This document shows, piece after piece, positions 827 to 18,839 of a stretch of 64,000 nt of DNA. Origin of the DNA: an uncultured bacterium. GTDB lineage: Bacteria; Oederibacteriota; JAAXVQ01. The number at the start of each line of letters is the position of its first letter. The first letter of the stretch is position 1. Location: assembly GCA_964593065.1 (NCBI GenBank), contig CAZQGO010000001.1:350082-414081 (forward strand). The letters run 5' to 3'. Under the pieces are notes generated by a model. The model was not told the DNA's origin. It did no database searches and saw only the letters and a program-made list of their open reading frames with translations. The position numbers and the translations under genes were made by a program.

Positions 827-911
827 CCCGGCGGAGCCCCCTCCGCTAAGATATCTCCGCGGGCAAAAACCCGCACCCGCTTGATTGCGCGGAGGGCGAC
901 GGCACAGAGGC

Positions 912-2810
912 ATGAAAATACTTTTCCTCCATTTCAACATCCAGACCGGCAACGGCCCGCATTTTGTGCCCGGCATCGCCAGCATTTCCAGCGTGCTCAA
1001 GGCCGCCGGACACCGGACCGGACTCCTGTTCCTGCAGGAGGAAATGGACCGCGATGCCTTTTTGGAGAAAATACGGACCGAAGCGCCGGACCTGGTGGGC
1101 ATCAACACCATCACCAATCAATGGCCCGTGATCACCCGTTACACGCGCTGGCTGCGGGAGGGATTCCCGGGCCCGGTGATTCACGGCGGAGTCCATGTCA
1201 CGGTTGCGCCGGAGGCGGCGCTGGCCTGCCCGGAGGTGGATCTTCTCTGCATCGGCGAAGGGGAGTTTCCCGTGCTGGAACTGGTCTCGGCCCTGGAACG
1301 CGGCGGGTCCTACGAGGGCATCCGCAACCTGTGGCTGAAGAAACCGGACGGGCAGATCCTCAGAAATCCCTTGCGGCCCCTGATCCAGGACTTGGACGCC
1401 CTGCCTTTTGCCGACCGCGAGCTGTTCAATTACCGCTGGCTGCTGCAGGGCAATCCCTACGAGGCCACCATGCTCATGGCCGGACGGGGCTGCCCCTTCA
1501 CCTGCAAGTATTGCGTCAACAACGCCCTGCATCAACTCTATCGCGGCCTGGGAAAATATCCGCGCCTGCGCTCCCCCGAAAGAGTGGTCGAGGAGGTCCG
1601 CCAGCTGCGCGACGAATACGGCACGCGCCGCCTGCTGATTTACGACGACACCTTCACCTACGACCGCCGCTGGCTGGAGCGTTTCTGCGAACTGTACCGG
1701 CGCGAACTCCGCCTGCCCTTCACGGTGAACATCCGCGTGGGTACGGTCACGGAGGCTGATCTGACGCGGCTGCGGCAGGCGGGCTGCGAGATGATCATCG
1801 TCGGCATCGAATCCGGGAGCGAAAGAGTCCGGCGGGAAATCCTGGGACGGAAAATGCGCAACGCCGAAATCATCCGGGTCTTCCGCGCGGCCGACCGGCT
1901 GGGGTTGAAGACCTGGACCAACAACATGGTCGGCATGCCGACCGAAACCCCGGCCGAGGCGGAGGCCACCGTCGCCCTGCAGCGGAAAATCCGGCCCAAC
2001 CGGGCCCAGATGACCGTGTTCTACCCGTTTCCCGGCACGGACCTGTATGCACGCTGCCTGCGGGAAGGATACCTTTCCGGACGCGAGGCCAGCGGTGTGT
2101 TCCTCAACAGCGTGCTCAACCTGCCCACCCTGTCCCCGGAACAGATCGCCCGCACTCTCGTGAAATTCAGGGAAACCACGCGCCGGATCGCCGTGGAAAA
2201 GGAGGGGAAGCGCGCATACTATGATTTTCTCTGGCATTTTCCGGAAGCGGAAATTGCCTCCGAGCAGGCGGACTACGTGGATTTCCACGCCGAAACCATC
2301 AACGGCGAGGAGCGCCTGGTGCTGCTGGCCCACCCGGAGACCCGGATCACGTACCGGGTGTTTTTTCCCGAACGAGCGCGGCTGGTTCTCGGCATGGGTT
2401 TGTCCCCGCTGGTATGGTCCCCGGAAAAAGGTGCGGGAGTTCACTTCCGGGTTTTTCTCGAGGACCGGGGACAGGAGGTCCGGGTATTTTCCAGATACCT
2501 GGATCCCAAGAACGATCCCGCCGACCGTCGCTGGCACGACGTGGAGCTTGACCTTTCGGCCTATCCGCCGGGTCCGCGTAAAATCATTTTCCAGACCACC
2601 ACGGACGGCGCGCCGAAGTATTATTGCTGGGCCAATTGGTCCCACCCGCTGCTCCTGGGACGGAGGAACCTGCTGACGCCCTTGCGCCGGGTCTGGCGCT
2701 GGGGATTCAAGCCCGCCGGATGGTTTTCGCGGCCCGGCGCCGGCGCGCATCGCCGCGGGCGGGAAAACGCGCCCGAAAAGACGCAGACCGGGGCGGGCCT
2801 CCATGGCTGA
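912..2810 (+). CDS. B12-binding domain radical SAM protein (class B radical SAM, putative C-methyltransferase-like)
   Basis: N-terminal MKILFLHFN...B12-binding-like Rossmann segment, then the radical SAM motif AGRGCPFTCKYC (CxxxCxxC) and a ~200-aa C-terminal extension. Start moved to the ATG at 912 (ORF track starts at 885). Confidence 0.85.
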   Translation: MKILFLHFNIQTGNGPHFVPGIASISSVLKAAGHRTGLLFLQEEMDRDAFLEKIRTEAPDLVGINTITNQWPVITRYTRWLREGFPGPVIHGGVHVTVAPEAALACPEVDLLCIGEGEFPVLELVSALERGGSYEGIRNLWLKKPDGQILRNPLRPLIQDLDALPFADRELFNYRWLLQGNPYEATMLMAGRGCPFTCKYCVNNALHQLYRGLGKYPRLRSPERVVEEVRQLRDEYGTRRLLIYDDTFTYDRRWLERFCELYRRELRLPFTVNIRVGTVTEADLTRLRQAGCEMIIVGIESGSERVRREILGRKMRNAEIIRVFRAADRLGLKTWTNNMVGMPTETPAEAEATVALQRKIRPNRAQMTVFYPFPGTDLYARCLREGYLSGREASGVFLNSVLNLPTLSPEQIARTLVKFRETTRRIAVEKEGKRAYYDFLWHFPEAEIASEQADYVDFHAETINGEERLVLLAHPETRITYRVFFPERARLVLGMGLSPLVWSPEKGAGVHFRVFLEDRGQEVRVFSRYLDPKNDPADRRWHDVELDLSAYPPGPRKIIFQTTTDGAPKYYCWANWSHPLLLGRRNLLTPLRRVWRWGFKPAGWFSRPGAGAHRRGRENAPEKTQTGAGLHG

Positions 2811-3747
2811 GCATTCCCTTTCTCCGCGGCCAACCGGCGCGCCCCGGGTGACGGTGATCGTGCCCAACTACAACCATGCCCGTTTCCTGCGGCAGCGGCT
2901 GGATTCCATCCTGGGGCAGACCCACCAGGACTTCGAACTCCTGATCTTGGACGATGCCTCCACGGACCGCAGCGCCAAGGTGATCCGCTCTTATCTCAAT
3001 CAGCCGCACGTCCGCTTTGAGGCCAATGCGCGCAATTCCGGCTCCGCTTTCCGGCAGTGGGCCAAGGGCCTGGCACTGGCGCGCGGAGAATATATTTGGC
3101 TCGCGGAATCGGACGACTGGGCCGATCCCCGGTTCCTGGAAAGACTGCTGCCCGTCCTGGAGGAAAGCCCGCGGCTGGGCTTGGTGTATTGCCAGTCCCG
3201 GTGCGTGGACGCAGCCGGCAAGATCCTGGGCGATGCTTCGGGCTGGACCGCGGACCTGGATCCCCTGCGCTGGACAACGGATTTTTGCAATGCGGGACCC
3301 GACGAGCTCAGGCGGTTTTTGCTTCGGAAGAATACCCTTCCCAGCGCCTCGGCGGTCTTGTGCCGGCGCAGTGCGCTCCAGGCCGCCGGCGTCCCGGACG
3401 CGGACCTGCGCCTGTGCGGAGACTGGCTGACCTGGATGCGCCTGCTGTCCGCCTGGGACGTGGCCTTCGTGGCCGAGCCCCTGAACTATTGGCGCCAGCG
3501 GACTTCCCACGCCCGCCTGCCCAGCAACGGCACCCTGGAGTGGCTGGAAGGCGAACGCGTTTTGACCGAAGGCTGCCGCTTGGCCGGCTTAAGCCGTGCC
3601 GAGACCACCGGGGTTTTGTTCGATTTTCTGAAGCGCTGCTGGCAATGGCAGAGGGAATATATCGAGGCGGTTTCCGGGGGAAAGCGGACTTCGCTCAAGA
3701 AAAAACTGGGCGGCTGGCTGAAACGGGCCAAGGCCAACCGGGCTTAA
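2803..3747 (+). CDS. family 2 glycosyltransferase (GT-A)
   Basis: VIVPNYNHARFL...LILDDASTD...ESDD: classic GT2 N-terminal motifs. 8-nt overlap with the upstream gene. Confidence 0.85.
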   Translation: MAEHSLSPRPTGAPRVTVIVPNYNHARFLRQRLDSILGQTHQDFELLILDDASTDRSAKVIRSYLNQPHVRFEANARNSGSAFRQWAKGLALARGEYIWLAESDDWADPRFLERLLPVLEESPRLGLVYCQSRCVDAAGKILGDASGWTADLDPLRWTTDFCNAGPDELRRFLLRKNTLPSASAVLCRRSALQAAGVPDADLRLCGDWLTWMRLLSAWDVAFVAEPLNYWRQRTSHARLPSNGTLEWLEGERVLTEGCRLAGLSRAETTGVLFDFLKRCWQWQREYIEAVSGGKRTSLKKKLGGWLKRAKANRA

Positions 3748-5573
3748 TTGCGCATCATCACATGCACCCGCCCGGCCTGATACCACATGAGGTCCGTGCC
3801 GGCGGGCGGAGGGCCCGTGAACGTCAGGACGACCCGGCGCAGCGATACCCGGCGGATCGCAACCAGCGGCTGCTCCGTCACGGCCCTGAACAATTCACCC
3901 CGCTTCCCCAAATCCAGCGTAAATTCATTCACCTTCGCTTGAATATCGATGGGGTTCCAACCGGAATTCACATCGTGGAACGTTAAAGCCCCGGCATAGG
4001 TCAGGTCTGAAAGCTTTTCCAGGCGGCGCAGGTCCTGCAGGAAGGCCGGATCCTTTCGGGCCCGTGGTTGCCAGGCCGCGGGCAAATCCTCAATGTCCAT
4101 TTCAGGTGCCGCGCTTTCCGTCCCGGAATGAGATCCGGCGCGCGCGAGCACGGCCCGCAATTCCTCCGGGGACAAAGCGTAGCGCTTGACCAGGCCGGCG
4201 AACAATCGCCGGGGTTCGAAGATCCGGAGCGCGGGCGAGAAACCGATGCGGAACACGAAAGCGCCGCAATAATTGTCCGGGAGATTCATAACGACCACCT
4301 TCCGGTTTTCGATGTTTTCAACGGCGCTGTCGAGAATGCTTCGCGCCAGGCGGCCGGCCGCGACCCAGCGCTCATTGATGATCTGCAAACTCCAGGCGCC
4401 GGCCACGAGCAGAACCGCCGCCAGGGCGACGGCGTATGCCCTCCGCCGGAACAGCCTGAATACACCCAAGATCATCAGAACGCTGGTAAAGACCGAGGGC
4501 AGATACGCCAGGCGCTCGTTTTCCACGGTAGACGGCAGGACCCCCAGGCCCAAGACCGGAACCACGGCGCACAGAAAGCACAGCGGCAGGCAGGCTAAAA
4601 AACGGGAATCGGGGTTGCGGGGACGGCGCAGCAAAAACCACAGGGGCAGGATCCCGCCCGCCAGCAGGCAGGCCGCGCCCCCGGCCATCCAAAATATCTC
4701 GGCGCCCGGTTTCCAGATCCCGGCCGGCAGGGCCGGCAGAAAGGATCGCAAGGCGAAAAAAGCCAGATTTTGCAGCCCGATGCCCGGAGAAAAATACAGA
4801 TGCACTTTCTGGCCATAGACGCCCAGAGCGCTGCCCAGGACGAGAATACGCAGCAGGAAATAGGCGGCGATGATTCCGGCGGAGCAGGCCAGCGTGAGCG
4901 CCGCCCGCTTGAAAATCATCCGCCCCTCCTCACCCGCGGACCACCGCGCCGCCGCCAGCACCGCCAGGCAGGGAAACAAGGCCAGCACGCTTTCCTTGGC
5001 CAAAAGTCCGGACGCCAGGCAGCCCAGCGTCAGCAGCAAGGCGCCCGTTTTACCCAGGGATAGGTAGCGGCCGTATGCCATGAGGGCCAGGAGAAAAAGG
5101 CTCGTGGCGATCAGGTCCGCGAGGCCGCCGATGTAGGAAACGGCCTCAGTATGATTGGGCAGGACCAGGAAAAGGGCGCCGGAAAAAAACGCCGGCCACA
5201 AGACCTCCGCTCCGGCCGAAGCCGGCTTCCGCAGTTCCTGGCGCACCCAGGCGTAGACGAAGAAGGCATTGCAGGCGTGCAGCAGCACGCTCATGAGATG
5301 GTGACCCGCAGGATTGAGCCCCCACAGGCGCAAATCCAGCCAGTACGCCAGGACGGTCACGGGGCGGAAAAAGCTGGCGGGCTTACCCCCCCAGGTCCAG
5401 TAAAAACCCTTCTGGAAGAAATTGCCCAGCATGAAGAAATCGTCCGAAAGAAAAGGCACGCGGAGGATTTTCCCGTACAACGCCGCGGCGGCCAGGATGA
5501 AAACGATCAACACGGGCCAGGGCGGCCGGAAGAGGAACTCCGGCGAGAGCCAATCGCGGCGGTGGGCGGGCAC
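3744..5573 (-). CDS. polytopic membrane protein of the GT-C superfamily, PMT/TMTC-like (putative mannosyltransferase-like), paralog 1
   Basis: Many predicted TM helices. An acidic SDDFF motif sits in the first loop. The HHLMSVLLHACNAFFVY motif resembles the HLxNxxLHxxNa signature of PMT/TMTC (GT39-related) proteins. The ~200-aa soluble C-terminal domain contains LPDNYCGAFVFRIGF, which is shared with the paralog at 6675..8558. Confidence 0.65.
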   Translation of the reverse strand: MPAHRRDWLSPEFLFRPPWPVLIVFILAAAALYGKILRVPFLSDDFFMLGNFFQKGFYWTWGGKPASFFRPVTVLAYWLDLRLWGLNPAGHHLMSVLLHACNAFFVYAWVRQELRKPASAGAEVLWPAFFSGALFLVLPNHTEAVSYIGGLADLIATSLFLLALMAYGRYLSLGKTGALLLTLGCLASGLLAKESVLALFPCLAVLAAARWSAGEEGRMIFKRAALTLACSAGIIAAYFLLRILVLGSALGVYGQKVHLYFSPGIGLQNLAFFALRSFLPALPAGIWKPGAEIFWMAGGAACLLAGGILPLWFLLRRPRNPDSRFLACLPLCFLCAVVPVLGLGVLPSTVENERLAYLPSVFTSVLMILGVFRLFRRRAYAVALAAVLLVAGAWSLQIINERWVAAGRLARSILDSAVENIENRKVVVMNLPDNYCGAFVFRIGFSPALRIFEPRRLFAGLVKRYALSPEELRAVLARAGSHSGTESAAPEMDIEDLPAAWQPRARKDPAFLQDLRRLEKLSDLTYAGALTFHDVNSGWNPIDIQAKVNEFTLDLGKRGELFRAVTEQPLVAIRRVSLRRVVLTFTGPPPAGTDLMWYQAGRVHVMMRN

Positions 5574-5576
5574 GGC

Positions 5577-6650
5577 TTATTGATCCCCGCCGGCCGGCAG
5601 GAATTTATCGGCCACGGCGCAGACCAGGGTCTCGCAGACGGCGCCCGTGGCCTGTTTGGGGCCGTAGTGCAGCAGAAATTCCCGGCATTGGCGGTAGGCG
5701 GGGCCGTTCCACAATTCCGGCAAGTCCAGCTTCAGGATGTTCCCCAGCGAAAACTTGTCTTCGTACACCGTGCAGCAGGGAAATACCTCGCCGTTCCAAT
5801 GGATGATCATGGACGTGAACGGCTGGCAACACCACTCCGGCAGGCGCGGATGCAGACGAATCGCGCCCGGGGAGGAAGGCGGAGGCGCCTGCGGCCCGGA
5901 GGCGGCGGGGCCGTCCGCGTTCCGGTTTTCCTGCGCGCGATGCAGGCCGGATTTCCAGTCTTCGCGGCCCCAAACGTCCATGAGGCTGAAGCGCAGGGTC
6001 ACGCCCAGGTCCGAGGCCATTTTTTGCGCCAGGGCCTGCTCGTGCTCGTTGAAGCGGTTGACGAGGAATCCCCAGATGATTTCCGGCGTTTTCGCCCGGA
6101 GCCGCAGTTTGGCTTGCTGCAATCGGGACAGGTTGGCAAGGGCCCGCGAAAAGCTCCCCCCCACGCGGTATTTTCCGTAGGTGGCCTGGCTGGCGCCGTC
6201 CATGGAGGCGGACAGGCAGGACAAGCCCGTGGCCACGACGGCCTCGGCGTCTTTCGGGCTCAAGGCCCGGAAGGTCAGGTTCGAGTGCAGGCTGGTGTAA
6301 ATGCCCTTCGCGGACGCGGCGGCGACCATCCGCAGAATGTCCCGGTTCAAAAAAGGTTCCCCGTAGTTGAACAGGCCGATGTTGTTGGCGTGCGGGGAAA
6401 TTTTTTCCAGGATGACCTGGTAATTTTCCCAGCTTAAAAAACCCCTCGCCGTACCACGGCGGCGAAGCCCGGTGGGACAGAAAGGACAGCGCAGATTGCA
6501 CAGGTTCCCGGTCTCGATATAGTAATTCCGGGGCGGGGGACAGGTCAGTTCAGACGCAGGCATTGCGGGCCTTTCGGAAAGAATCGGCGGGTGCCAGGGA
6601 TCAGGGACGATCCAGGGGTTCGGAACCGAACCGGCACCTGCCAGAAGCAA
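5577..6650 (-). CDS. radical SAM enzyme with C-terminal Cys-rich auxiliary-cluster (SPASM/twitch-like) domain
   Basis: CNLRCPFCP (CxxxCxxC) lies near the N-terminus. The C-terminal Cys cluster is CCQPF...FPCC...C...C. The ORF as given starts with TTG at 6650. An in-frame ATG at 6563 (MPASELTCPPP...) is an alternative start. Confidence 0.8.
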   Translation of the reverse strand: MLLAGAGSVPNPWIVPDPWHPPILSERPAMPASELTCPPPRNYYIETGNLCNLRCPFCPTGLRRRGTARGFLSWENYQVILEKISPHANNIGLFNYGEPFLNRDILRMVAAASAKGIYTSLHSNLTFRALSPKDAEAVVATGLSCLSASMDGASQATYGKYRVGGSFSRALANLSRLQQAKLRLRAKTPEIIWGFLVNRFNEHEQALAQKMASDLGVTLRFSLMDVWGREDWKSGLHRAQENRNADGPAASGPQAPPPSSPGAIRLHPRLPEWCCQPFTSMIIHWNGEVFPCCTVYEDKFSLGNILKLDLPELWNGPAYRQCREFLLHYGPKQATGAVCETLVCAVADKFLPAGGDQ

Positions 6651-6674
6651 AAATAGTACAATCCCCCGCGCTTG

Positions 6675-8558
6675 TCAATTCATCTTGCTTCCGGGCAGGG
6701 GCCGCAGTCGGCCGCGGTCAAAGTAAAGGACGTCCGTGTCCCCGGGCAAACCCCGGGGCAAGAAGACGGTTAGAAGCGGAGTGGTCAGGCCGTGGGCCGC
6801 ATACTCCTCCTGCCCGGAAGGGGATAGGAACCAGAAAAAAACTCCGGGTTCCTCGAGCCGGACTTCCAGGCGCCGCGGGTACTGGGTAACGGAGACGCGG
6901 TCCTCGGGAGTGATCAGGCCGTGCAGTCCCAGGACCGAGATTTCGGAAAGGTTCAACCAGCGCCGGTATTGCTTCAGCAAGCCCTGCCAGGGTTCCACCG
7001 CCAGCCGGCCCGACGACAGCCAGCCGGAAAACAGCCGGGGCAGCTCCTCCGGTTTGAGGCGGGCCGCGGGATGCTTCACTTCCGCCAGGAATTCCTCGAG
7101 GCCGGGCAGGGACTTCTGGTCGGGGATTTGCTCCAATACCCGGGGGAATCTCAGCTTTTCCACAGCGATGGCCTCGGCGAAGCCGGTCCTCCAGATATAA
7201 GCTCCGCGGTAGTTGTCCGGCAGGTTCAGTACCAGCAATTTTGGCTGTGAAATCCGGGCCAGGGCGTCTTGGACCAGATGCCGGGAAATCCTGCCGGCCG
7301 TATGCCAGTAGCCGTGCACGACCTGCATGCCGGCCGCGCCCGCTAGGAGCAGGATAGGCACCAGGGCCAGGCGCAGCCACCGCGTCCGCACCCAAAATCC
7401 CAAACCCGTTGCCAGCGCGCAGGCCATGAACACCGATGGGAAATACAGAAACCGTTCTCCGTCGGTCCCGTACGGGTCGAGGAAGAGATTCGCGCTGGGC
7501 AATTCGGCGCAGAAAAAAAGCGCCAGCAGAACCAGGAAAAGCGTGAAAACCGGCCGGCCGGAGGCAGGGAGGCGCCTGCCTGAAAGAAAAAGCAGCAGCG
7601 CCAGGAGGAACCAGAAGAGCATGGGAAAGATCCGGGAGCTCAGCAGGCCCTTGAGCGCGAGCGGCAGGGGCGGCGTCAGGCTCCTGACCCCGGCCCAAGC
7701 CCAATTGGAGAGCAGGAGCCCGGGTGACCAGTCGAGATGGATATCGGCTCCGTAGCCGCCGATCCAGGCTCCCAAAATCAGGTGGCGCGCATAGAAATAA
7801 CCGGCCGCCAGGAGCAGTGCGAGGAGCAAAGGACCGGCGAGCCGGCTCGCGAATCGTCCGCGAATTTCCGGCACCGCGGCCCAATAAAAAATCGCCAACC
7901 CCGCCAGGCACAAGGGCAGGATCAGGGCGCTTTCCTTGGACAAGAGCGCCAAGGCGAAGGCGGCCGCAAACATCGTCAGGGTGGCGGCCCGGGGACGGAG
8001 CAGGTGCCGGGTGAACGCCAGCAGCGCCAGCAGGAGGAAAAATGTGACCAGGAGATCGGGCCGCCCGGAGATCCAGTCCACGGCCTCGCTGTGACTGGGC
8101 ATCACTAAAAAGATGAGGCCCGCGACCAGGGCGACCACCTGTGCCCGGTGCGTCCCGATGCGTTGCAGCGGCTCGCGGAAAAAGACCGCCACCAGGCAGG
8201 CGTTGGCCAGGTGCAGCATCAGGTTGCAGAGGTGAAATCCGGCGGGGTGGAGTCCCCAAATACGGATGTCCAGCCAGTAACTCAGGAGCGGCAGGGGACG
8301 GAAGAAAATCGCGCCGGGCATGCGCCAGGACTCGAACCAGGGTTTGTCAACCAGGGTTACCAGGAAGGTAAAATCATCGGCCAGGAAAGGCAGGCTCAGG
8401 CAGCTCCAGAAAACCAGCAAACCCGAAGCAAAAATCAAAACCCAAACCAGCCAGCCGGGGACCGCCCGGGATGTACCCCCATCGTTCCGGAACAGGCTCC
8501 AGCCGGCATTCGGTCGCGAAGTCATAATGTGCGCATGGTAGCACGAAAATCCGGGCAT
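6675..8558 (-). CDS. polytopic membrane protein of the GT-C superfamily, PMT/TMTC-like, paralog 2
   Basis: Same architecture as 3744..5573: LADDFTFL loop motif, FHLCNLMLHLANACLVAVF motif, and a C-terminal domain with LPDNYRGAYIWRTGF. Clear paralogy at protein level. Confidence 0.65.
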   Translation of the reverse strand: MPGFSCYHAHIMTSRPNAGWSLFRNDGGTSRAVPGWLVWVLIFASGLLVFWSCLSLPFLADDFTFLVTLVDKPWFESWRMPGAIFFRPLPLLSYWLDIRIWGLHPAGFHLCNLMLHLANACLVAVFFREPLQRIGTHRAQVVALVAGLIFLVMPSHSEAVDWISGRPDLLVTFFLLLALLAFTRHLLRPRAATLTMFAAAFALALLSKESALILPLCLAGLAIFYWAAVPEIRGRFASRLAGPLLLALLLAAGYFYARHLILGAWIGGYGADIHLDWSPGLLLSNWAWAGVRSLTPPLPLALKGLLSSRIFPMLFWFLLALLLFLSGRRLPASGRPVFTLFLVLLALFFCAELPSANLFLDPYGTDGERFLYFPSVFMACALATGLGFWVRTRWLRLALVPILLLAGAAGMQVVHGYWHTAGRISRHLVQDALARISQPKLLVLNLPDNYRGAYIWRTGFAEAIAVEKLRFPRVLEQIPDQKSLPGLEEFLAEVKHPAARLKPEELPRLFSGWLSSGRLAVEPWQGLLKQYRRWLNLSEISVLGLHGLITPEDRVSVTQYPRRLEVRLEEPGVFFWFLSPSGQEEYAAHGLTTPLLTVFLPRGLPGDTDVLYFDRGRLRPLPGSKMN

Positions 8559-8587
8559 ATCCAGACCCGAAATTCAGTTTGAAATAG

Positions 8588-8616
8588 TTGACTTACCTTT
8601 CGGAAATAATGATAAT
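8588..8616 (+). promoter_or_regulatory. sigma70-like promoter (TTGACT-N17-GATAAT) in the divergent intergenic region
   Basis: TTGACT at 8588-8593, a 17-nt spacer, GATAAT at 8611-8616. It sits where the six-frame ORF nominally starts, which argues that the true CDS start is downstream. Confidence 0.3.
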
Positions 8617-8818
8617 AATGATTCGCGCCGAATGCGACTCAGGCAATGTCTGGACACGAGCGTTTCGTCCGTTTGCTCATCACCAACTTTCCACGCCGGA
8701 TGAAATCCAATATCCAAAAGGGCGGTTTTGGTTGGCGGTTGCCCGGGAAATCTTTGGCCGTGGGGGACACGTTCGGCTCCGGACCCGCGTTGAAAGCCAC
8801 GAAAAAGGTGTGCGGCTC

Positions 8819-11800
8819 ATGGAAGAGAGGCAGGAACAAGCACCGGCACCGTCCCTGGCTGCGGTTTTTCACGATCTCCCGGACGATTTTTGGTACTGGT
8901 GCCTCACCGAAGGCATCCAGCGCGGCTGGCTGACCGATCTGCTGCCCTGGCTGCCGCCGGAAGGCGTCCAGGAAAAGTACACCGGGCGGTCGGGGGAGCC
9001 GGCCCTGTCCCAGGCTTTCGGCTTTTTCCAGCTCTGCAAGCAGGAACTCGGCCGCCTGGGCCTCGAATTGGCACCGGATTCACGGGTGTTGGATTTCGGC
9101 TGCGGTTGGGGCCGCATCACCCGTTTGCTCCTGAAGGACGTCCATCCCCGGAACGTGACGGGCGTGGACATGCTCGACGAAGCCATCCGCATTTGCCGCA
9201 AGTCGAATTTTCCCTGCGCTTTCGAGCGCATTTCCCCCCGGCCGCCCATTTTTTACGCCGACGAATCCCTGGATTATATTTTCGCCTATTCGGTCTTCAC
9301 CCATTTGTCCGAGGAATGCGCCCGCGCCTGGATCGGGGAGTTCCGGAGGATCCTCAAGCCCGGGGGCGTGGTTTTCGCCACCATCAGGCCGCCGGAGGCC
9401 GTGGAGGAGTTCGCCCGGCTGCGCCAGGTCCCGGACATCCCTTCCTCCGGGCAAACCGCGGCGCAGGCTTTCCAGGACTTGGACCGGGTGCGGCGGGACT
9501 ATGCGGCCGGGCGCTTTGTTTTCGAACCCTCGCCAGGAGCCTCCCCGGAAGGCGCCTGCTTCGGCGAAGCCCTCATTCCGCCGGCCTATGCGCAGCGGAA
9601 TTATTCCGGCCATTTTCCCGAAATCCGCATCCTGGAGTCCCGGGACCACGGGCGGTTCGACCAGCACCTGCTGATTCTGCGCAAAGCCCCCCGGCCCGTC
9701 GCGTCGGCGGCAGGACCGGCGGCCGAGCCGGCTCTCCCCCCGGCGCGCGAGCCGGAGCTGCCCTGGACCGGGGAACGTCTGGTCACCTCCCTGCGGGGAC
9801 CCATTGTCGGCGAACATTTGCACCGCTATGCCCTGGCCGCCGAACTGGTCGCCGGCCGGACGGTGCTGGACGTGGCCTGCGGCGAGGGCTACGGTTCGCA
9901 CCTGCTGGGACGCCGGGCCCGGCGCGTCCTGGGCGTGGACAATTCCCCGGAGACCATCGAGCACGCGCGCGCGAAGTATGGGCGGGAGAATGTGGAATTC
10001 CAGGTGGGTTCGGCGGAAGCCATCCCCCTGCCGGACCGGTCCGTGGACGCCGTCGTCACCTTCGAAACCATCGAGCACCTGCGCGCTCCCGGCCCCTTCC
10101 TGGCCGAGATTCGCCGCTGCCTGGGACCCCGGGGCGTGCTGGTCATTTCCTCTCCGGACCGGGAGCCCTACCAAGAGGCCACGCCCGAGCCCAATGTTTT
10201 CCATGAGCAGGAATTGACCCATGCGCAGTTCGCCGAACTGCTACGGGGAACATTCCGGCACGTGTTCCTGGCGCGCCAGCGCTTTCTCCAGGGGTCCTTC
10301 ATGGCGCCGGACCAGGAGGATCCCGCGCCCCGCCTGGGCACCTTTTCCGGCAATTTCAACGAGGTATCCTTCCATCCCGGCGTGAACAGGGGCATCTATT
10401 CCATCGCCGTGTGTTCCGACGCCCCCCTGGAACGCGTTCCCATGGGGGTGTTTGAAAGCCCCCTGGCCAACGCGGACGGGGCCTGGACCCAGTGGGCCCA
10501 GGTGCAGCGGCGCCTGCAGGAATTGAGCGAGGAATACCGGCAGCTGGCCGCCGCGCACGCCCTGGGACAGCGCGTGAACGCCGTCCTGGGATTTTTACGC
10601 GCCGAGCAGGAAAAGGACCGCGTGCTCCAGGAAACACGCCTGGAGCAGGAGCGCGAAAGCAACCGGAACCTTTCGGAAGCCCTGGAGCAAGCCCGGGAGC
10701 GGATCGGAGAGCTGGGCCGCGAACTCGAACGGGTCAATTCCCAGAAGCACCAGATGCTGCTGACCCTGCAGCAGTTCGAACAACGCCTCCACTGGCAGCG
10801 GCACCGGCATCAGAAAATGCGGACGCAGTTGATCGTGGCCAACAATCTGGCGCGCACGTTCCGCGGCCTGCTCCCGGCCTGCAAACGCGCGAGCCTGAGG
10901 AAATGGCAGCGGATCCGCCGCCGGGTCCTTCCTCCCGCCCAAGCCCGGCGCGGCCTGCTGCACGGGCTGTGGACCGTGCTGGATTGGCCGTGGCGCGCCT
11001 GGCATGCCCGCCCGAGCCAGCGCCGCCTCGTGCGCGCCAGCGGACTGTTCGACGCCGCTTATTACCTCGAACAGGTTCCCGACCTGGCGGCCCGCGGCCT
11101 GGATCCCGTGAAGCACTACCTGGCGCGCGGAGCCGAGGAGGGGCGGAATCCCAGCGCCTTGTTTGACACGTCCTTCTACCTGCGCAGCAACCCGGACGTG
11201 GACGAGTTCGGCGTCAACCCGCTCGTGCATTTCATCCAATCCGGAATGGACGAGGAACGCGATCCTTCGCCGGCCTTCGACACGCAGTATTACCTGGAAA
11301 ACAATTCCGACCTGGTGGCGGCCGGAGTGTCCGCGTTCCCGCATTATTATCACACCGGACGCCGCGAGGGCCGGCTGGCGCATGCGCATGGCGCCGGGGG
11401 CGACTCCCGGGCCGAATCCGGCGGCTCCTCGCCCGCCCCGGCCGCTCCGGCCGGCGAGGACGGGGACGGGCGCGAGCCCGTTGAACCGCGCTGGCGTTCC
11501 ACGGTGGATTGGCGCCGGCGTCCGCAGCCGGAACCCGGCAACGTGAAATGCATTGCCTTCTACCTGCCCCAGTTTCACCCCGTGCCGGAGAACGACGAAT
11601 GGTGGGGGGAAGGCTTCACCGAGTGGGAAATGGTCTCGCGGGCGGCGCCGCTGTTTCACGGGCATTACCAGCCGCACCGGCCCGCGGAACTCGGCTTTTA
11701 CGACCTGCGCGTTCCGGAGGTCCGGGAAAAGCAGGCGGCCATGGCCCGGGCCTTCGGCATCCAGGGCTTCTGCTACTATTATTACTGGTTCAACGGCCAG

Positions 11801-13831
11801 CGCCTGCTCGACCGGCCGCTGCAGGAGGTCCTGGCTTCGGGCCGGCCTGACTTTCCATTCTGCATCTGCTGGGCCAACGAGAACTGGACTCGCCGCTGGG
11901 ACGGCCAGGACCAGCAGGTGCTCATTGAGCAGGGGCATTCCTTCGAGTCGGACGTGGCTTTCATCCGGGACGTGATCCCCATCCTGAAAGACCCCCGCTA
12001 CCTCCGCTTCGAGGGCAAGCCCGTGCTGCTGGTCTATCGCGCGGACAAACTGCGGGATCCGCGGGCCACGGCCCGGGCCTGGCGCGACCTGTGCGCCCAG
12101 GCCGGAATCCCGGGCCTGCATCTGTGCATGGTGGAGATTCTGGGCACCGGCCAGCCCCAGCAGCGGGGATTCGACGCGCTGGTGGAATTTCCTCCCAACA
12201 GTTACCTGTGCAAGAACATCGCGCACTCGGTCCGGGGACTGCATCCCCAGTTTCGGGGGCAGATTTTCGACTACCGGGAACTGGCCGGCCAGTCCCTGCA
12301 GCACCGGCCGGAGGGTTATCCGTACCACCGCACCGTGATGGGCATGTGGGACAACACCGCACGCACGGGCCAGGATGCGCGGATTTTCCATCACGCCCGG
12401 CCCGACCTCTACGAGCACTGGCTGGAAACGTTCGTGCGGGAAGCCAAAAGCCGGCGGGACCAGGAAGCCTTGATTTTCATCAACGCCTGGAACGAATGGG
12501 GAGAGGGCGCGCACTTGGAGCCCGACCGGCGCCACGGATTCGGCTGGCTGGAAGCCACGGCCCGCGCCCTGTCCGCGAAGCCCGGCGCGGCCCGGGCGCT
12601 TCCGGAGCAGCCGCCGGCCGCCGCCGGCCCGGAGCCGTCCGGGGCGGAAGCGTCGCACGCGACGGAGGGCGGGGAGGAGGCGGCCGCGGCCGGAAAAAAC
12701 GGCGGGATCGTGCTGGTCGTGCACAACGCCCTGCAATTCGGCACGCAGTTTCTTTCCCTGGCGCTGGCCGAGACCTGGCTGCGGCGGTACCGCGAAAAAA
12801 TGTTCGTGCTCCTCAAGCAGGGAGGCGAACTGGAACCGGCCTTTGCCCGGACCGGCCATGTGATCAACCTCGAATCCGAAACCCGCCGTTTGGGCTCCGA
12901 GGCGGCGGCCCTGGAAAGGATCCGGCGCCGCCTGCAAGCGGCCGGAGTCGACCGCTGCCTGTGCAACAGCGTGGTCACCGGGGACCTGGCCCGGTTTTTC
13001 AAGCAGCAGGGCTGCCGGGTGGTTTCGCTGGTGCATGAATTGCCCGCGCTCACCGCCACCTACGGGTACGAGCACCTGGCCGAGTGGCTGGCGGCCTCCT
13101 CCGACCGCCTGATCTTCCCGGTCGAAGCCGTCCGCCGCCCTTTTGTCGAGCGCTTCGCCGTGCCGGACGAAAAGACGCTCATCCGGCCCCAGGGAATCAT
13201 GCGGCCCAATCCGTACCTGCAGCGCCGGGAATGGGCGCGGCGCACGCTGCAGAAACGCCACCAATTGGGCCCGGATTTCAAGCTGGTTCTAAACTGCGCC
13301 TACGGCGACCTGCGCAAGGGCCCGGACCTTTTCCTGGCCGTGGCCCGGCAGGTGCTGCAGCAGCGGGCGGCGGACAACGTTCATTTCGTCTGGGCCGGGG
13401 CTTTTGAAAGGGAACTCAAGGCCTGGTGCGAACACGACCGGAGGGGCATGGCCTTTGCCGACCGGGTGCATTTCATCGGCTTCCAGCAGGACGACGCCGT
13501 CTACCAGGCGGCGGCCGACATTCTGGCCTTAACCTCCCGCGAGGACCCCCTGCCGCATGTCATGCTCTCGGCCATGGAGGCCGGCGTGCCCGTGGTCGCG
13601 TTTGCCGGCAGCGGCGGCGCGGATGAAATCCTGGCGGACGGCCGGGGCGTCCTGGTGCCGTATCTGGACGTGGCCGGCATGGCCGGCGCAATCGCGGGGC
13701 TGCTGCTGGACGAGGAGCGGCGACGGGACATCGGCCGCCGGGCCGCGGAGACGATCGCGCGCTCGTTCCGGTTTGAGGATTACGTGGATTTCATCGCGCG
13801 GCAATTCGAAAAGGTCCCGGCGGGGCGGTAA
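8819..13831 (+). CDS. giant multidomain glycan-modifying protein: 2x class I SAM methyltransferase, coiled coil, 3 tandem ~38-aa repeats, WbsX-like domain, GT4 glycosyltransferase domain
   Basis: MT1 is VLDFGCGWGRIT. MT2 is VLDVACGEGYGSHLL. A heptad-rich, coiled-coil-like segment (ELSEEYRQLAAA...RLEQERESNRNLSEALEQARERIGELGRELERVNSQKHQ) follows. Three repeats run FDxxYYLxxNPDVxxxGxxPLxHFxxxGxxEGRxPS. The WbsX-type motif is CIAFYLPQFHPVPENDEWWGEGFTEWEMV. The C-terminal GT4-like segment is HFIGFQQDD...LPHVMLSAMEAGVPVVAF. The ORF is open from 8588 (TTG). I prefer the in-frame ATG at 8819 (MEERQEQ...) because a promoter-like element overlaps 8588-8616. Confidence 0.8.
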   Translation: MEERQEQAPAPSLAAVFHDLPDDFWYWCLTEGIQRGWLTDLLPWLPPEGVQEKYTGRSGEPALSQAFGFFQLCKQELGRLGLELAPDSRVLDFGCGWGRITRLLLKDVHPRNVTGVDMLDEAIRICRKSNFPCAFERISPRPPIFYADESLDYIFAYSVFTHLSEECARAWIGEFRRILKPGGVVFATIRPPEAVEEFARLRQVPDIPSSGQTAAQAFQDLDRVRRDYAAGRFVFEPSPGASPEGACFGEALIPPAYAQRNYSGHFPEIRILESRDHGRFDQHLLILRKAPRPVASAAGPAAEPALPPAREPELPWTGERLVTSLRGPIVGEHLHRYALAAELVAGRTVLDVACGEGYGSHLLGRRARRVLGVDNSPETIEHARAKYGRENVEFQVGSAEAIPLPDRSVDAVVTFETIEHLRAPGPFLAEIRRCLGPRGVLVISSPDREPYQEATPEPNVFHEQELTHAQFAELLRGTFRHVFLARQRFLQGSFMAPDQEDPAPRLGTFSGNFNEVSFHPGVNRGIYSIAVCSDAPLERVPMGVFESPLANADGAWTQWAQVQRRLQELSEEYRQLAAAHALGQRVNAVLGFLRAEQEKDRVLQETRLEQERESNRNLSEALEQARERIGELGRELERVNSQKHQMLLTLQQFEQRLHWQRHRHQKMRTQLIVANNLARTFRGLLPACKRASLRKWQRIRRRVLPPAQARRGLLHGLWTVLDWPWRAWHARPSQRRLVRASGLFDAAYYLEQVPDLAARGLDPVKHYLARGAEEGRNPSALFDTSFYLRSNPDVDEFGVNPLVHFIQSGMDEERDPSPAFDTQYYLENNSDLVAAGVSAFPHYYHTGRREGRLAHAHGAGGDSRAESGGSSPAPAAPAGEDGDGREPVEPRWRSTVDWRRRPQPEPGNVKCIAFYLPQFHPVPENDEWWGEGFTEWEMVSRAAPLFHGHYQPHRPAELGFYDLRVPEVREKQAAMARAFGIQGFCYYYYWFNGQRLLDRPLQEVLASGRPDFPFCICWANENWTRRWDGQDQQVLIEQGHSFESDVAFIRDVIPILKDPRYLRFEGKPVLLVYRADKLRDPRATARAWRDLCAQAGIPGLHLCMVEILGTGQPQQRGFDALVEFPPNSYLCKNIAHSVRGLHPQFRGQIFDYRELAGQSLQHRPEGYPYHRTVMGMWDNTARTGQDARIFHHARPDLYEHWLETFVREAKSRRDQEALIFINAWNEWGEGAHLEPDRRHGFGWLEATARALSAKPGAARALPEQPPAAAGPEPSGAEASHATEGGEEAAAAGKNGGIVLVVHNALQFGTQFLSLALAETWLRRYREKMFVLLKQGGELEPAFARTGHVINLESETRRLGSEAAALERIRRRLQAAGVDRCLCNSVVTGDLARFFKQQGCRVVSLVHELPALTATYGYEHLAEWLAASSDRLIFPVEAVRRPFVERFAVPDEKTLIRPQGIMRPNPYLQRREWARRTLQKRHQLGPDFKLVLNCAYGDLRKGPDLFLAVARQVLQQRAADNVHFVWAGAFERELKAWCEHDRRGMAFADRVHFIGFQQDDAVYQAAADILALTSREDPLPHVMLSAMEAGVPVVAFAGSGGADEILADGRGVLVPYLDVAGMAGAIAGLLLDEERRRDIGRRAAETIARSFRFEDYVDFIARQFEKVPAGR

Positions 13832-13842
13832 AATCCCCCGCG

Positions 13843-14086: not shown

Positions 14087-14128
14087 TGAAAGTACCCACC
14101 CGGGCGTGGGCACGAAAGGAAAGCGTGC

Positions 14129-15556
14129 ATGGTATTTTCCTCGGTCAGCTTTTTATTTTACTTTCTGCCGGTGGTCCTCCTGGCCTATTTCCTCGTGCGT
14201 CCCGCCTGGCGGAATTTCGTGCTCCTGCTGTCCGGGCTGGTCTTTTACCTCTGGGGCGCGGGTGAAATCGTCTTCATCCTGATGTTGTCCATCGCCTTGA
14301 ATTGGGTTTTCGGGCTGATGGCCGCTGCGGCCCGCGACAGCGGGGAACGGTGGCGCCGGAACCTGCCGGTGATCGCCTCCGTGATCGTGAACCTGGGCAT
14401 CCTGGGCTATTTCAAGTACACGAATTTTTTCGTCGCCCAGATCAACCATCTCGGGGAAATCACGCGGGCCGGTTTCATGCCGGTCTATCTCGCGCCCATC
14501 CTGCTGCCCATCGGCGTGTCCTTCTTCACGTTTCAGGCCATGAGCTACGTGATCGACGTGGCCCAGGGCCGCGTGGAGCCCCTGCAAAACCCGGTGGACT
14601 TCGGCATGTACATCGCCATGTTTCCCCAGCTGGTGGCCGGGCCGATCGTCCGCTACCATGAAATCGCCCCGCAAATCCACCGGCGCGGCGTCACCTGGGA
14701 AGGCTTCTCCGCCGGCATGGTGCGTTTCATTCACGGCCTGGTCAAAAAGGTGGTTTTCGCGGATTCGATCGGGCTGCTGGCCGACCAGGCTTTCAAGGCG
14801 CCCGAGCGCTTGAGCGCCGGCGGCGCCTGGCTGGGGCTGCTGGCCTTCACCATCCAGGTCTATTTCGATTTCTCGGGCTATTCGGACATGGCCATCGGCC
14901 TGGGCCAGATGTTCGGCTTCCGCCTGCCCGAGAATTTCAACCGGCCCTATTCGGCCGTGAGTTTCACGGACTTCTGGCGGCGCTGGCACATGACCCTTTC
15001 GCACTGGTTCCGCGATTACGTCTACATTCCCCTGGGCGGATCGCGGCGGGGACCCTGGCGCACCTACCTCAACCTCGTCATCGTCTTTTTCCTGGTGGGA
15101 TTCTGGCACGGCGCCAACTGGACGTTCGTGGTCTTCGGCCTCTACCACGGCTTCTGGATGAGCCTGGAGCGGGCCACCGGGCGCCGGTTTGCCGGAGAGA
15201 TGAAACACCCCCTGGTCCGCCGGGCGCTCACTTTCTTCCTCATCCTCCTGGGCATGACCCTGTTTCGTGCCGAGAACATGCATCAGGCCTGGACCTATTA
15301 CCAGACCTTGTTCGGCCTGCGGGGCGGCACGCAGTTTTTGGCCCCGGGCACGGATTGGCAGGGTCTGGTCTTTCTGGCCCTGGGCAGCCTGGTGGTTTTC
15401 CTGCCCGACAACCTCGTGGTGGGCAGGCTCCTGGAGCAGTCCGAAAAACGCGCCGTGGCCTGGATGCGGCTCGGCCTGGCCACCGTGGCCCTGACCTTCG
15501 CCATCATGCTGATCGTCAGCCGGAATTACACTCCCTTCATCTACTTCCAATTCTGA
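14129..15556 (+). CDS. MBOAT family membrane-bound O-acyltransferase (AlgI/DltB-like)
   Basis: Polytopic protein. FWRRWHMTLSHWFRDYVYIPLGG carries the conserved His motif of MBOAT proteins. Size 475 aa. Confidence 0.9.
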   Translation: MVFSSVSFLFYFLPVVLLAYFLVRPAWRNFVLLLSGLVFYLWGAGEIVFILMLSIALNWVFGLMAAAARDSGERWRRNLPVIASVIVNLGILGYFKYTNFFVAQINHLGEITRAGFMPVYLAPILLPIGVSFFTFQAMSYVIDVAQGRVEPLQNPVDFGMYIAMFPQLVAGPIVRYHEIAPQIHRRGVTWEGFSAGMVRFIHGLVKKVVFADSIGLLADQAFKAPERLSAGGAWLGLLAFTIQVYFDFSGYSDMAIGLGQMFGFRLPENFNRPYSAVSFTDFWRRWHMTLSHWFRDYVYIPLGGSRRGPWRTYLNLVIVFFLVGFWHGANWTFVVFGLYHGFWMSLERATGRRFAGEMKHPLVRRALTFFLILLGMTLFRAENMHQAWTYYQTLFGLRGGTQFLAPGTDWQGLVFLALGSLVVFLPDNLVVGRLLEQSEKRAVAWMRLGLATVALTFAIMLIVSRNYTPFIYFQF

Positions 15557-18054: not shown

Positions 18055-18071
18055 GCGGAAAGGGCGACCCT

Positions 18072-18839
18072 TTGAACCGCAACACCCGTCAGTTCCTGGA
18101 TCTGATCCTCGTTCTCACCCAGAAGGACCTGAAGGTGAGGTACAAGAACAGCGTGCTGGGGTATCTGTGGTCCGTGGCCAATCCCCTGGCTTTCGCCCTC
18201 GTGTTCTACTTTGCCTTCAAGGTCATCATGCGGGTGGACATGGAGGATTACGCCCTGTTCCTCATCGTCGGCCTGTTTCCCTGGCAGTGGTTTTCCAATT
18301 CCATCAACATCTCCTCCACGGTGTTCCTGTCCAACGCCAGCATCATCAAGAAGGTGAGTTTCCCGCGCAACATCATTCCCTTAAGCATCGTATTGCAGGA
18401 CATGATCCATTACATCCTGTCCCTGCCCGTGATCGGGCTCTTCCTCCTGCTCTATCAAAAACCCGCGCAGGCGGCCTGGCTCTGGGGCATCCCGCTGCTG
18501 CTGGCCGGGCAATTCATGCTCATCTACGGCCTGGCCCTGGCCGTGTCCAGCATCAACCTCTTTTTCCGCGACCTGGAACGAATCGTCGGCATATTGATGA
18601 TGATCGTTTTTTATTGCACCCCCATCCTCTACCCGCTGGACATGATTCCCGCGCGGTTTCAGCACTGGGTGGGGTTGAATCCTTTCGCGACGGCGATCTT
18701 GGGCTGGCGGACCCTGCTTTTGGACGGACGCCTGGATCCCGTCGCCGCCGGACTCACCCTGGCCTACGGCCTGGCGGCTTTGGGCCTGGGCACCTGGATC
18801 TATTCCCGCCTGGCCTGGAAGTTTGCGGAGGTCCTATGA
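18072..18839 (+). CDS. wzm: ABC-2 type polysaccharide exporter permease (Wzm/KpsM-like)
   Basis: NRNTRQFLDLILVLTQKDLKVRYKNSVLGYLWSVANPL is the canonical ABC-2 N-terminal motif. Six TM segments. Candidate TTG start at 18072, preceded by GGAAAGGG. The six-frame ORF is over-extended back to 17550. Confidence 0.8.
   Translation: MNRNTRQFLDLILVLTQKDLKVRYKNSVLGYLWSVANPLAFALVFYFAFKVIMRVDMEDYALFLIVGLFPWQWFSNSINISSTVFLSNASIIKKVSFPRNIIPLSIVLQDMIHYILSLPVIGLFLLLYQKPAQAAWLWGIPLLLAGQFMLIYGLALAVSSINLFFRDLERIVGILMMIVFYCTPILYPLDMIPARFQHWVGLNPFATAILGWRTLLLDGRLDPVAAGLTLAYGLAALGLGTWIYSRLAWKFAEVL

Follow-up and report, generated by a model that had tools for sequence, protein, structure and literature searches.

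Gene organization of the locus

The analysed window is a 64,000-nt stretch of DNA from an uncultured bacterium of the Oederibacteriota. Three minus-strand open reading frames, in the order P2, radical SAM gene, P1, were found where the preliminary description had placed them, and their GC3 of 0.78–0.79 is usual for coding sequence here. The features of this trio are as follows:

3744..5573, minus strand: P1 (609 aa), one of two membrane glycosyltransferase paralogues with a GT-C fold; its periplasmic domain at the C-terminus bears the NLPDNY motif
5577..6563, minus strand: radical SAM enzyme (328 aa when read from the ATG at 6563), whose C-terminal domain is of the SPASM/twitch type
6650..6678, minus strand: TTGACA-17-TATTTT, a match to the sigma-70 promoter type, lying at the P2 stop and upstream of the radical SAM gene
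6675..8558, minus strand: P2 (627 aa), the second of these membrane glycosyltransferase paralogues, also with a GT-C fold

The longest reading frame of the radical SAM gene spans 5577–6650 (357 aa), but translation most likely begins at the ATG at 6563, for a protein of 328 aa. This start is shared by the public gene calls and by a 64%-identical homologue (P0002), and GAAAGG sits 8 nt upstream of it. With this start, 111 nt separate P2 from the radical SAM gene, in place of 24 nt. Of the gaps of 3–25 nt described earlier, the one of 3 nt that separates the stop of the radical SAM gene from the start of P1 holds, and that on the P2 side does not. The 3-nt spacing implies co-translation of the radical SAM enzyme and P1, and could mean a real functional link in this organism. 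The 111-nt gap holds the sigma-70-like match; a consensus scan gave two sites against 1.0 expected, and as a promoter the site at 6650–6678 is a hint only. An Rfam scan of the window returned no matches. Base composition gave no sign that the radical SAM gene was recently inserted by horizontal transfer, with GC3 at 0.78–0.79 in all three genes, and this possibility was dropped.

A surrounding glycan cluster

The trio belongs to a cluster of ~21 kb at about 885–21,600, in which a Pfam assignment was obtained for every gene from 885 to 20,529. The other genes are:

885..2810, plus strand: B12-binding radical SAM enzyme, 641 aa (Pfam B12-binding and Radical_SAM), overlapping the start of GT2a
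2803..3747, plus strand: GT2a, soluble family-2 glycosyltransferase (Pfam Glycos_transf_2, 2e-25)
8819..13831, plus strand: giant protein with two methyltransferase domains, a WbsX-type glycosyltransferase and GT4/GT1 (Pfam), divergent from P2
14129..15556, plus strand: MBOAT membrane O-acyltransferase (Pfam MBOAT, 2.7e-33; 54% identical in the syntenic cluster L009, described below)
15556..18054, plus strand: AlgX/AlgJ-like SGNH protein with repeated C-terminal modules (Pfam ALGX, 5e-12; start at 15556 likely)
18072..18839, plus strand: Wzm-type ABC-2 permease (Pfam ABC2_membrane, 5.7e-13)
18836..19633, plus strand: Wzt-type ABC ATPase, 265 aa (Pfam ABC_tran, 1.1e-19)
19630..20529, plus strand: GT2b, second family-2 glycosyltransferase (Pfam Glycos_transf_2, 2.4e-34)

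The presence of Wzm and Wzt beside glycosyltransferases with GT2, WbsX and GT4 domains fits an ABC-transporter-dependent glycan assembly cluster, and the whole looks like an ordinary set of surface-polysaccharide genes. Wzt is of the short form without a carbohydrate-binding C-terminal domain. No flippase was seen in the cluster, and neither a priming phosphoglycosyltransferase nor a ligase was found among the genes from 885 to 21,612; these may lie elsewhere in the genome. The reading frame of the giant protein opens at 8588, its likely start is the ATG at 8819, and a promoter-like site at 8588–8616 lies ahead of this ATG. A search of its WbsX domain against solved structures gave no match, and no NCBIfam equivalog reached its cut-off for the B12-binding radical SAM enzyme. 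GT2a was considered as a lipid-sugar synthase of the GtrB/ArnC/DPM1 type and rejected, since its best matches are chain-extending GT2s and no transmembrane (TM) segment is predicted.

The cluster shares with the E. coli O9a WbdA/WbdD type both Wzm/Wzt and a large multidomain methyltransferase-glycosyltransferase protein. However, unlike in that system, Wzt has no carbohydrate-binding domain, neither a priming transferase nor WaaL is visible, and GT-C, MBOAT/AlgX and two radical SAM genes are present in addition.

The GT-C membrane proteins P1 and P2

P1 and P2 align end to end with 32% identity (E 5e-68) and share the motifs FLADDF/FLSDDF, HLCNLMLHLANA/HHLMSVLLHACNA and NLPDNYRGAYIWRTGF/NLPDNYCGAFVFRIGF, which map to conserved columns of a 22-sequence family alignment (A1). 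The proposal that they are paralogues with common DDF, HLxN-type and LPDNY motifs is thus well founded. P1 retains all invariant columns of A1, including the DD motif after the first transmembrane helix (TM1, model helix 35–55), and D61 and D62 are at least 90% conserved among the 22 sequences. This acidic motif immediately follows TM1 and lies in the first extracytoplasmic loop, a feature of the GT-C superfamily; the 11 helices put the C-terminal domain outside the cytoplasm. The model has the multi-helix GT-C fold, with PMT/OST/ArnT-type enzymes as best structural matches and Pmt4 at the top, and its C-terminal part consists of strands and helices followed by a strand-rich stretch from 539 to 620. 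A sequence search of P2 against solved structures gave no match.

The TMTC-like and PMT_2-type enzymes (eukaryotic TMTC1-4 of family GT105, yeast Pmt1/2/4, and ArnT) likewise have a GT-C fold with ~11 helices, and their first external loop opens with an acidic DD motif. In bacterial TMTC-like proteins, the HLxN...LH and SKE core is conserved: residues 85–219 are 47% identical to P0150, a 768-aa TPR protein of this kind, and many TPR proteins align to the first ~20% of the query. Judged from these alignments, the GT-C core of P1 and P2 is closely related to bacterial TMTC-like TPR proteins. Unlike the TMTC/PMT_2-type enzymes, however, P1 and P2 have no TPR, MIR or DUF1736 match in Pfam at E <= 1, and the repeats are replaced by a different C-terminal domain with an NLPDNxRGAY motif. 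The structural matches and the 47%-identical core therefore support the earlier assignment to PMT/TMTC-like GT-C proteins with another domain in place of TPR. Of the checks suggested for it, structure prediction recovered the GT-C fold, DUF1736 is absent from the Pfam matches, and neither PMT nor PMT_2, the Pfam models for the PMT family (GT39), reaches its cut-off (PMT_2 20.1 bits against 26.1 for P2, no match for P1). PMT_2 matches are weak in 8 of the 22 family members, with a best E of 1.3e-5. An O-antigen ligase or polymerase, named earlier as the identity that would overturn the assignment, was rejected for P1 and P2, as neither a Wzy_C match in Pfam nor a WaaL-like fold in the fold search was found.

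The family to which P1 and P2 belong has no Pfam or NCBIfam model. It is large: with representatives taken at the 50% identity level, the top 150 score below E 1e-109 without exception, nearly all of them covering almost the whole profile, and members with this periplasmic domain of their own are spread over Acidobacteriota, cyanobacteria, Bacteroidota, candidate phyla and others. Members are usually ~540 aa; the pair in the window and that in the syntenic cluster L172 (below) are longer, at ~600–650 aa, and the extra length of P1 and P2 is an insertion of ~80 aa in the C-terminal domain. Family members from cyanobacteria and two other phyla have UbiA, a GMC oxidoreductase and an NAD-epimerase as neighbours, a set reminiscent of decaprenyl-phospho-arabinose synthesis. 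The family, sometimes found beside such a donor pathway, is thus one lead from this work. Many members lie in unrelated neighbourhoods, so context says little about the acceptor. The neighbours in Chitinophagaceae are housekeeping genes held by lineage synteny and are uninformative.

These relationships bear on the possibility that the GT-C pair acts en bloc as OST-type transferases or ligases, moving the completed and exported glycan from undecaprenyl diphosphate to a lipid, protein or cell-wall acceptor instead of attaching sugars one at a time. Pfam STT3 has no match to P1 or P2 at E <= 1, the nearest sequence relatives are TMTC/PMT_2-type users of monosaccharide donors, and the cyanobacterial members adjoin a monosaccharide lipid-donor pathway. 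We consider en bloc transfer unlikely, although it is the strongest of the alternatives weighed here.

The radical SAM enzyme

Both Radical_SAM (43.8 bits, cut-off 29.5) and SPASM (53.5 bits, cut-off 21.5) of Pfam match the radical SAM enzyme above their cut-offs, which supports its proposed SPASM/twitch class. The CX3CX2C motif and the partial TIM-barrel core of the superfamily are both present, and C22, C26 and C29 of the motif are invariant in an alignment of 40 sequences. The C-terminal cysteines form CX12GX4C (C245, G258, C263) together with C293, C310 and C316, of which C245, G258, C263, C310 and C316 are conserved in the alignment; the full seven-Cys SPASM pattern with CX2CX5CX3C is absent from it. 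Such a reduced pattern is what a single-cluster twitch-type domain would show, and the NCBIfam model N_Twi_rSAM matches weakly. No NCBIfam family reaches its cut-off (best 74.5 bits against 380; BlsE 38 against 400), which holds for anSME, BtrN, PqqE and the sactipeptide and other peptide maturases as well, and longer homologues were inspected for informative fusions and had none.

The AlphaFold2 model (pLDDT 93) has BlsE, SuiB, BtrN and DesII as its top PDB matches. BlsE, which heads the fold search, is with BtrN also the closest by sequence among solved structures. The fold search gives no discrimination between SPASM enzymes acting on sugars and those acting on peptides, as SuiB, SkfB and anSME lie near BlsE and BtrN. 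The enzyme is like BtrN, BlsE and DesII in its CX3CX2C core, its reduced Cys-rich auxiliary domain and its setting in carbohydrate biosynthesis, but identity to these enzymes is only 14–21%, and in place of an antibiotic pathway the gene lies among surface-polysaccharide genes, one of them encoding a WbsX-type glycosyltransferase. The radical SAM core starts ~10 residues into the protein, too close to the N-terminus for a peptide-recognition domain to precede it. A sugar substrate is therefore plausible, given this and the best sequence matches to BlsE and BtrN.

Conservation of the trio

The preliminary description had proposed a tight functional link between the radical SAM enzyme and PMT-like glycosyltransferases. 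The neighbourhoods do not bear this out: not one of 79 genomic loci containing a GT-C homologue has the radical SAM gene, and not one of 84 loci containing a radical SAM homologue has the GT-C gene. The two GT-C genes were found together with the radical SAM gene in this organism alone. As one refuting outcome, the earlier description had named an enzyme of a known family whose homologues are not linked to such membrane proteins; the homologues are indeed unlinked, but the enzyme belongs to no named family.

Synteny was found in just three clusters, of which two lie on short contigs: L009, from a metagenome-assembled genome of candidate division FCPU426, and L170 and L172, both Logan contigs. 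All three are without the radical SAM gene, so that the trio is not a conserved unit. The closest synteny is that of L009, which shares AlgX, MBOAT, the giant protein (48% over 1714 aa) and GT2a (61%), and has a single GT-C gene. L170 likewise has one GT-C gene. L172 has two overlapping tandem GT-C genes with nothing between them, then GT2a (62%) and the B12-radical SAM gene (55%). P1 is convergent with GT2a with a 4-nt overlap, and the same arrangement occurs in L009 and L172, where the GT2a homologues (61–62% identical) hold the same position; the divergent pairing of the giant protein and GT-C recurs in L009 and L170. The radical SAM gene is probably a lineage-specific insertion between two older tandem GT-C paralogues. 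Gene content, folds, family relations and this lack of conservation are direct observations, and they remove a false lead, namely a conserved module of a radical SAM enzyme and PMT-like glycosyltransferases. Literature searches for GT-C with radical SAM and for SPASM with O-antigen found no papers.

Association of the radical SAM enzyme with WbsX

Six loci with radical SAM orthologues of at least 42% identity (42–54%) had enough flank to be scored. In all six (L002, L003, L005, L006, L090 and L093), a WbsX homologue (46–56% identity) lies within ~6 kb, and methyltransferases, GT2 and sometimes Wzm/Wzt or MBOAT/AlgX are also nearby. This pairing probably marks an unknown sugar modification. Literature searches on WbsX with radical SAM and on PF14307 found no paper describing the pairing; in a broader search, radical SAM genes were only mentioned in LPS clusters, with their function not given. 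A second lead is therefore a radical SAM subfamily consistently alongside WbsX-type glycosyltransferases in surface-glycan clusters. Together with the GT-C family, it would be useful for annotating cell envelopes of uncultured bacteria, and current concepts are unchanged.

The same neighbourhoods bear on whether the locus encodes protein or peptide O-glycosylation coupled to radical peptide modification, one of two readings put forward earlier. In its favour, protein glycosylation is the established activity of PMT and TMTC enzymes, and the GT-C protein has Pmt4 as its best structural match; peptide maturation is the role of many SPASM enzymes, and SuiB, SkfB and anSME are among the fold matches. 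However, the orthologue neighbourhoods L002, L003, L005 and L006 are all glycan clusters, as is the context here, and the enzyme's auxiliary-cluster motif is less complete than that of peptide maturases. A recognition domain and a nearby precursor gene are common in RiPP-type radical SAM maturases, if not universal. The enzyme has no such N-terminal domain, and the genes from 885 to 21,600 abut or overlap, which leaves no precursor-sized space. This coupling is very improbable, and we do not retain it.

A proposed pathway

The other earlier reading, in which a radical SAM enzyme tailors a sugar within a glycan pathway, agrees with the context of Wzm/Wzt, the WbsX/GT4 giant protein, MBOAT/AlgX and GT2. 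The trio probably forms part of a cluster that makes a heavily tailored surface glycan and depends on an ABC transporter to export it; the radical SAM enzyme and the GT-C pair would be neighbours in one pathway, and do not look like a dedicated three-protein machine. Substrates, step order, donor type and dimerisation are inferred as follows. GT2a, GT2b and the giant methyltransferase-WbsX-GT4 protein would assemble the glycan in the cytoplasm, where it would be a substrate for tailoring by the methyltransferase domains, the B12-radical SAM enzyme and the SPASM/twitch enzyme, the last most likely through sugar oxidation, epimerisation or a similar radical change. Wzm/Wzt would then export the glycan. 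On the periplasmic side, MBOAT/AlgX would O-acylate it, and the GT-C pair, possibly as a P1–P2 heterodimer, would glycosylate it further, with a polyprenyl-phosphate sugar as the probable donor. Counting against this pathway, GT2a resembles an ordinary chain-extending GT2 and not a polyprenyl-phosphate sugar synthase.

Alternatively, the trio may be a lineage-specific unit in which the radical SAM enzyme makes or remodels a lipid-linked sugar donor, for instance by oxidation or epimerisation that needs no oxygen, comparable to DprE1/DprE2, and the GT-C pair transfers that sugar. The tight gene order, with the trio on one strand and 3 nt between the radical SAM gene and P1, is consistent with such a unit, as is the UbiA/GMC-oxidoreductase/epimerase donor set adjoining GT-C relatives, a set that the window does not have. 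BtrN, one of the best matches, represents a type of twitch enzyme that oxidises the hydroxyls of sugars. On the other hand, the radical SAM orthologues go with WbsX, and with GT-C in none of the 84 loci, the syntenic clusters do without the gene, and no polyprenyl-phosphate sugar synthase is recognisable here. We therefore regard a unit of this kind as improbable. Slightly less probable still is that the twitch enzyme was recruited for O2-free donor synthesis or remodelling, replacing the flavin and NAD oxidoreductases found beside the GT-C relatives; if so, the trio would be a periplasm-directed glycan-decoration unit of an undescribed kind.

For the pathway of one tailored surface glycan, mycobacterial arabinogalactan assembly provides a parallel, with Wzm/Wzt-type export followed by GT-C enzymes (Aft/Emb) acting on decaprenyl-phospho-arabinose. 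The organism and the glycan are different, however: the window contains no UbiA or DprE genes, and the identity of its GT-C proteins to mycobacterial Aft/Emb is about 10–13%.

Gene arrangement

The two paralogous GT-C membrane protein genes, P1 and P2, and the radical SAM gene between them (the trio) lie in a region where all genes from 885 to about 21,600 are for glycan biosynthesis, except one ORF at the cluster end:

885-2810, B12-radical SAM gene
2803-3747, GT2a, a family-2 glycosyltransferase, convergent with P1
3744-5573, minus strand, P1, ORF of 609 aa
5577-6650, minus strand, radical SAM enzyme, longest ORF (357 aa); 328 aa from the ATG at 6563
6675-8558, minus strand, P2, ORF of 627 aa
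likely 8819-13831, divergent from the trio, giant protein with two methyltransferase, WbsX-type and GT4 domains
next in order after the giant protein, MBOAT, AlgX-like protein, Wzm, Wzt and GT2b (a second family-2 glycosyltransferase)
20533-21612, ORF of 359 aa with no Pfam or NCBIfam match and coding-type composition, closing the cluster

Together these genes make up a glycan cluster that relies on an ABC transporter, with acylation after export; past its end come an MFS transporter, FtsH and housekeeping genes. The three minus-strand ORFs were found where the preliminary description placed them, with a third-position GC (0.78-0.79) typical of coding sequence for the window (64% GC). P1 and P2 are 32% identical across their full length (E 5e-68), and the motifs attributed to them (DDF, HLxNxxLH and NLPDNY.GA) fall on conserved columns of the GT-C family alignment. 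The middle protein scored above the Pfam cut-offs for Radical_SAM and SPASM. The ATG at 6563 is the radical SAM start in the public gene calls (P0001) and in the 64%-identical homologue P0002, and GAAAGG lies 8 nt upstream of it. The spacer between P2 and the radical SAM gene is therefore 111 nt, and contains a sigma-70-like match (TTGACA-17-TATTTT); only 3 nt separate the radical SAM stop from the P1 start. The AT skew is strongly positive (0.18-0.26) at 4001-8000, probably because the minus-strand genes of P1 and P2 contain many T-rich Phe/Leu codons.

The giant ORF at 8588-13831 encodes two SAM-methyltransferase domains, followed by an unassigned middle part and then by WbsX-type and GT4/GT1 domains. 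A promoter-like site overlaps its annotated start, a TTG, and the real start is thus probably the ATG at 8819. Homologues of 1658-1708 aa were found in L009 (a candidate division FCPU426 MAG) and L170 (a Logan contig), always divergent from a GT-C gene. At its C-terminal end, the AlgX-like protein (15556-18054) has three copies of a module of roughly 130 aa, over which no Pfam family was found; segments 612-745 and 772-898 and an earlier copy align to the same region of homologues. An ORF of 259 aa at 47-826 has no Pfam match, and another B12-binding radical SAM protein, this one carrying DUF4070, is encoded outside the cluster (29287-30810, minus strand).

Conservation of the trio

The tight functional association proposed between the radical SAM enzyme and P1/P2 was not borne out. 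Within 10 kb of the GT-C gene, no radical SAM homologue is present at any of the 79 genomic loci from many phyla recovered by the family profile (0/79), and no P1/P2 homologue was found in the radical SAM loci (four obtained via exact proteins and 80 metagenomic). L009 is syntenic with the window (AlgX 34%, MBOAT 54%, giant protein 48% over 1714 aa, GT2a 61%) and has one GT-C gene, without a second paralogue or a radical SAM gene. In L170/L171, the giant protein and GT-C genes are divergent, as in the window. L172/L173 contain two overlapping tandem GT-C genes of about 600 aa each, each aligning to P1 and P2 over the full length, with no gene between them, followed by convergent GT2a (62%) and B12-radical SAM (55%) genes in exactly the window order. 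P1, P2, the homologues P0122 and P0137 and the L009 protein group together in a neighbour-joining tree. These loci and the tree therefore define a conserved set of GT-C (one or two copies), GT2a and giant protein, sometimes with the B12-radical SAM gene. As an addition to this set, the twitch radical SAM gene was found only in the window's own lineage and in near-identical metagenome contigs. Overall, the preliminary description was accurate and its family assignments right at the superfamily level, both families being uncharacterised members of known superfamilies; that the radical SAM gene sits so close to P1 and P2 in this glycan cluster is an accident of local gene order or, at most, reflects recruitment specific to the lineage.

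The radical SAM enzyme

All NCBIfam scores of this protein fall far short of the respective cut-offs (best 74.5 bits vs 380). In a 40-sequence alignment, CX3CX2C, the CX12GX4C element (C245, G258, C263) and C310 are invariant, C293 and C316 are mostly conserved, and the sequences lack the CX2CX5CX3C element found in full SPASM domains. This pattern would be expected of a twitch-type domain with one auxiliary cluster. The closest relatives of solved structure by sequence are BlsE (2.7e-7) and BtrN (4.5e-6), both sugar-modifying enzymes. The predicted model (pLDDT 93) matches BlsE, SuiB, BtrN, DesII, SkfB and anSME at TM-scores of 0.5-0.64, matches that do not tell sugar-acting from peptide-acting enzymes. 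Protein or peptide modification by the trio is a very unlikely alternative to a sugar-acting role. Neither alignment nor model contains an N-terminal recognition domain.

A WbsX homologue (46-56% identity) was found within about 6 kb in all six loci that have a radical SAM protein at least 42% identical and enough flank (L002, L003, L005, L006, L090 and L093), together with sugar methyltransferases, GT2 genes and sometimes Wzm/Wzt or MBOAT/AlgX. In the window, the WbsX domain sits within the giant protein adjoining the trio. Remoter relatives (30-37% identity) are without WbsX. Close to them there is often a B12-radical SAM gene (in 9 of the 41 examined loci that span at least 7 kb, a set of 41 that includes the four exact-protein loci) or GT2 genes. 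No paper describing a radical SAM/WbsX pairing was found in the literature. Three paralogues from this radical SAM/SPASM subfamily, 42-48% identical to the window protein, are encoded together at 10001-14034 in L003, alongside a WbsX gene and one for a TylF-type methyltransferase.

The GT-C membrane proteins

P1 and P2 gave only sub-threshold Pfam and NCBIfam matches (PMT_2 20 bits vs 26.1, Agl23 27 vs 126), and a sequence search of solved structures gave none. The figures listed for structural matches were 19.4 for AglB, 18.8 for ALG12, 18.5 for STT3B, 17.7 for ArnT, 17.0 for Pmt2, 16.1 for PglB, and 14-15 for AftD, AftA and AftB. Immediately after TM1 (helix 35-55) comes a DD motif (D61, D62), and over residues 85-219 the identity to a TMTC-like bacterial protein with TPR repeats is 47%. 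On these structural matches, the DD motif and the core identity, P1 and P2 belong to the PMT_2/TMTC-like branch of GT-C. Remoter relatives are almost all TPR-bearing TMTC-like proteins. P1, P2 and their nearer relatives are a family of their own, with a length of about 540 aa, in which a C-terminal domain with NLPDNxRGAY replaces the TPR repeats. With about 11 helices, this domain would lie outside the cytoplasm if the arginine-containing N-terminus is cytoplasmic. In P1 and P2, it contains about 80 additional aa; the two L172 proteins are about as long as P1 and P2 and align end to end with both.

This is a large family: its profile gave 18,905 matches at E <= 1e-30 among 1.84 billion representatives, probably including TMTC-like relatives; the best 150 are all below 1e-109, nearly all along almost the whole profile. 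Both P1 and P2 keep all invariant family residues, and are thus probably active. Tandem or nearby duplicates occur in L015, L038, L039, L044, L046, L050 (three copies), L061, L063 and L172, across several phyla, so paralogue pairs are a general habit of the family.

Proposed pathway and sugar donor

GT2a, GT2b and the WbsX-GT4 giant protein may build the glycan on a lipid carrier in the cytoplasm. The methyltransferase domains of the giant protein would tailor it, as would the B12-radical SAM enzyme, probably through C-methylation or a related reaction. The twitch radical SAM enzyme could oxidise or epimerise a sugar or change it in a similar way; less probably, it has a lineage-specific role in donor making. 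After export by Wzm/Wzt, the glycan would be O-acylated in the periplasm by MBOAT/AlgX and glycosylated by P1 and P2, perhaps as a heterodimer comparable to Pmt1-Pmt2 or EmbA-EmbB. En bloc ligation by the pair is a less likely alternative to such glycosylation.

Many GT-C family members lie in unrelated neighbourhoods. Recurring neighbours are NAD-epimerase (12 loci), UbiA prenyltransferase (9) and GMC oxidoreductase (9), in cyanobacteria, one Pseudomonadota MAG and one Polyangia MAG. In L088 (2080-11146), the GT-C gene is flanked by UbiA, GMC oxidoreductase, NAD-epimerases, a DUF218 gene and a small SMR-type transporter; at the position of this DUF218 gene, a conserved unannotated ORF stands beside GT-C in 10 loci. 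Further such loci (8-11 depending on the gene) are L011, L015, L017, L021-L025, L027, L028, L030 and L043. Mycobacterial UbiA, DprE1 and DprE2 act in the route to decaprenyl-phospho-arabinose, and the similarity of the neighbour set to this route suggests a polyprenyl-phosphate monosaccharide as the GT-C donor. GT2a was considered as a lipid-sugar synthase and set aside, as it looks instead like a chain-extending GT2. A GT2 gene adjoins GT-C in 10 loci of three phyla, and GT2-GT-C fusions occur among distant relatives.
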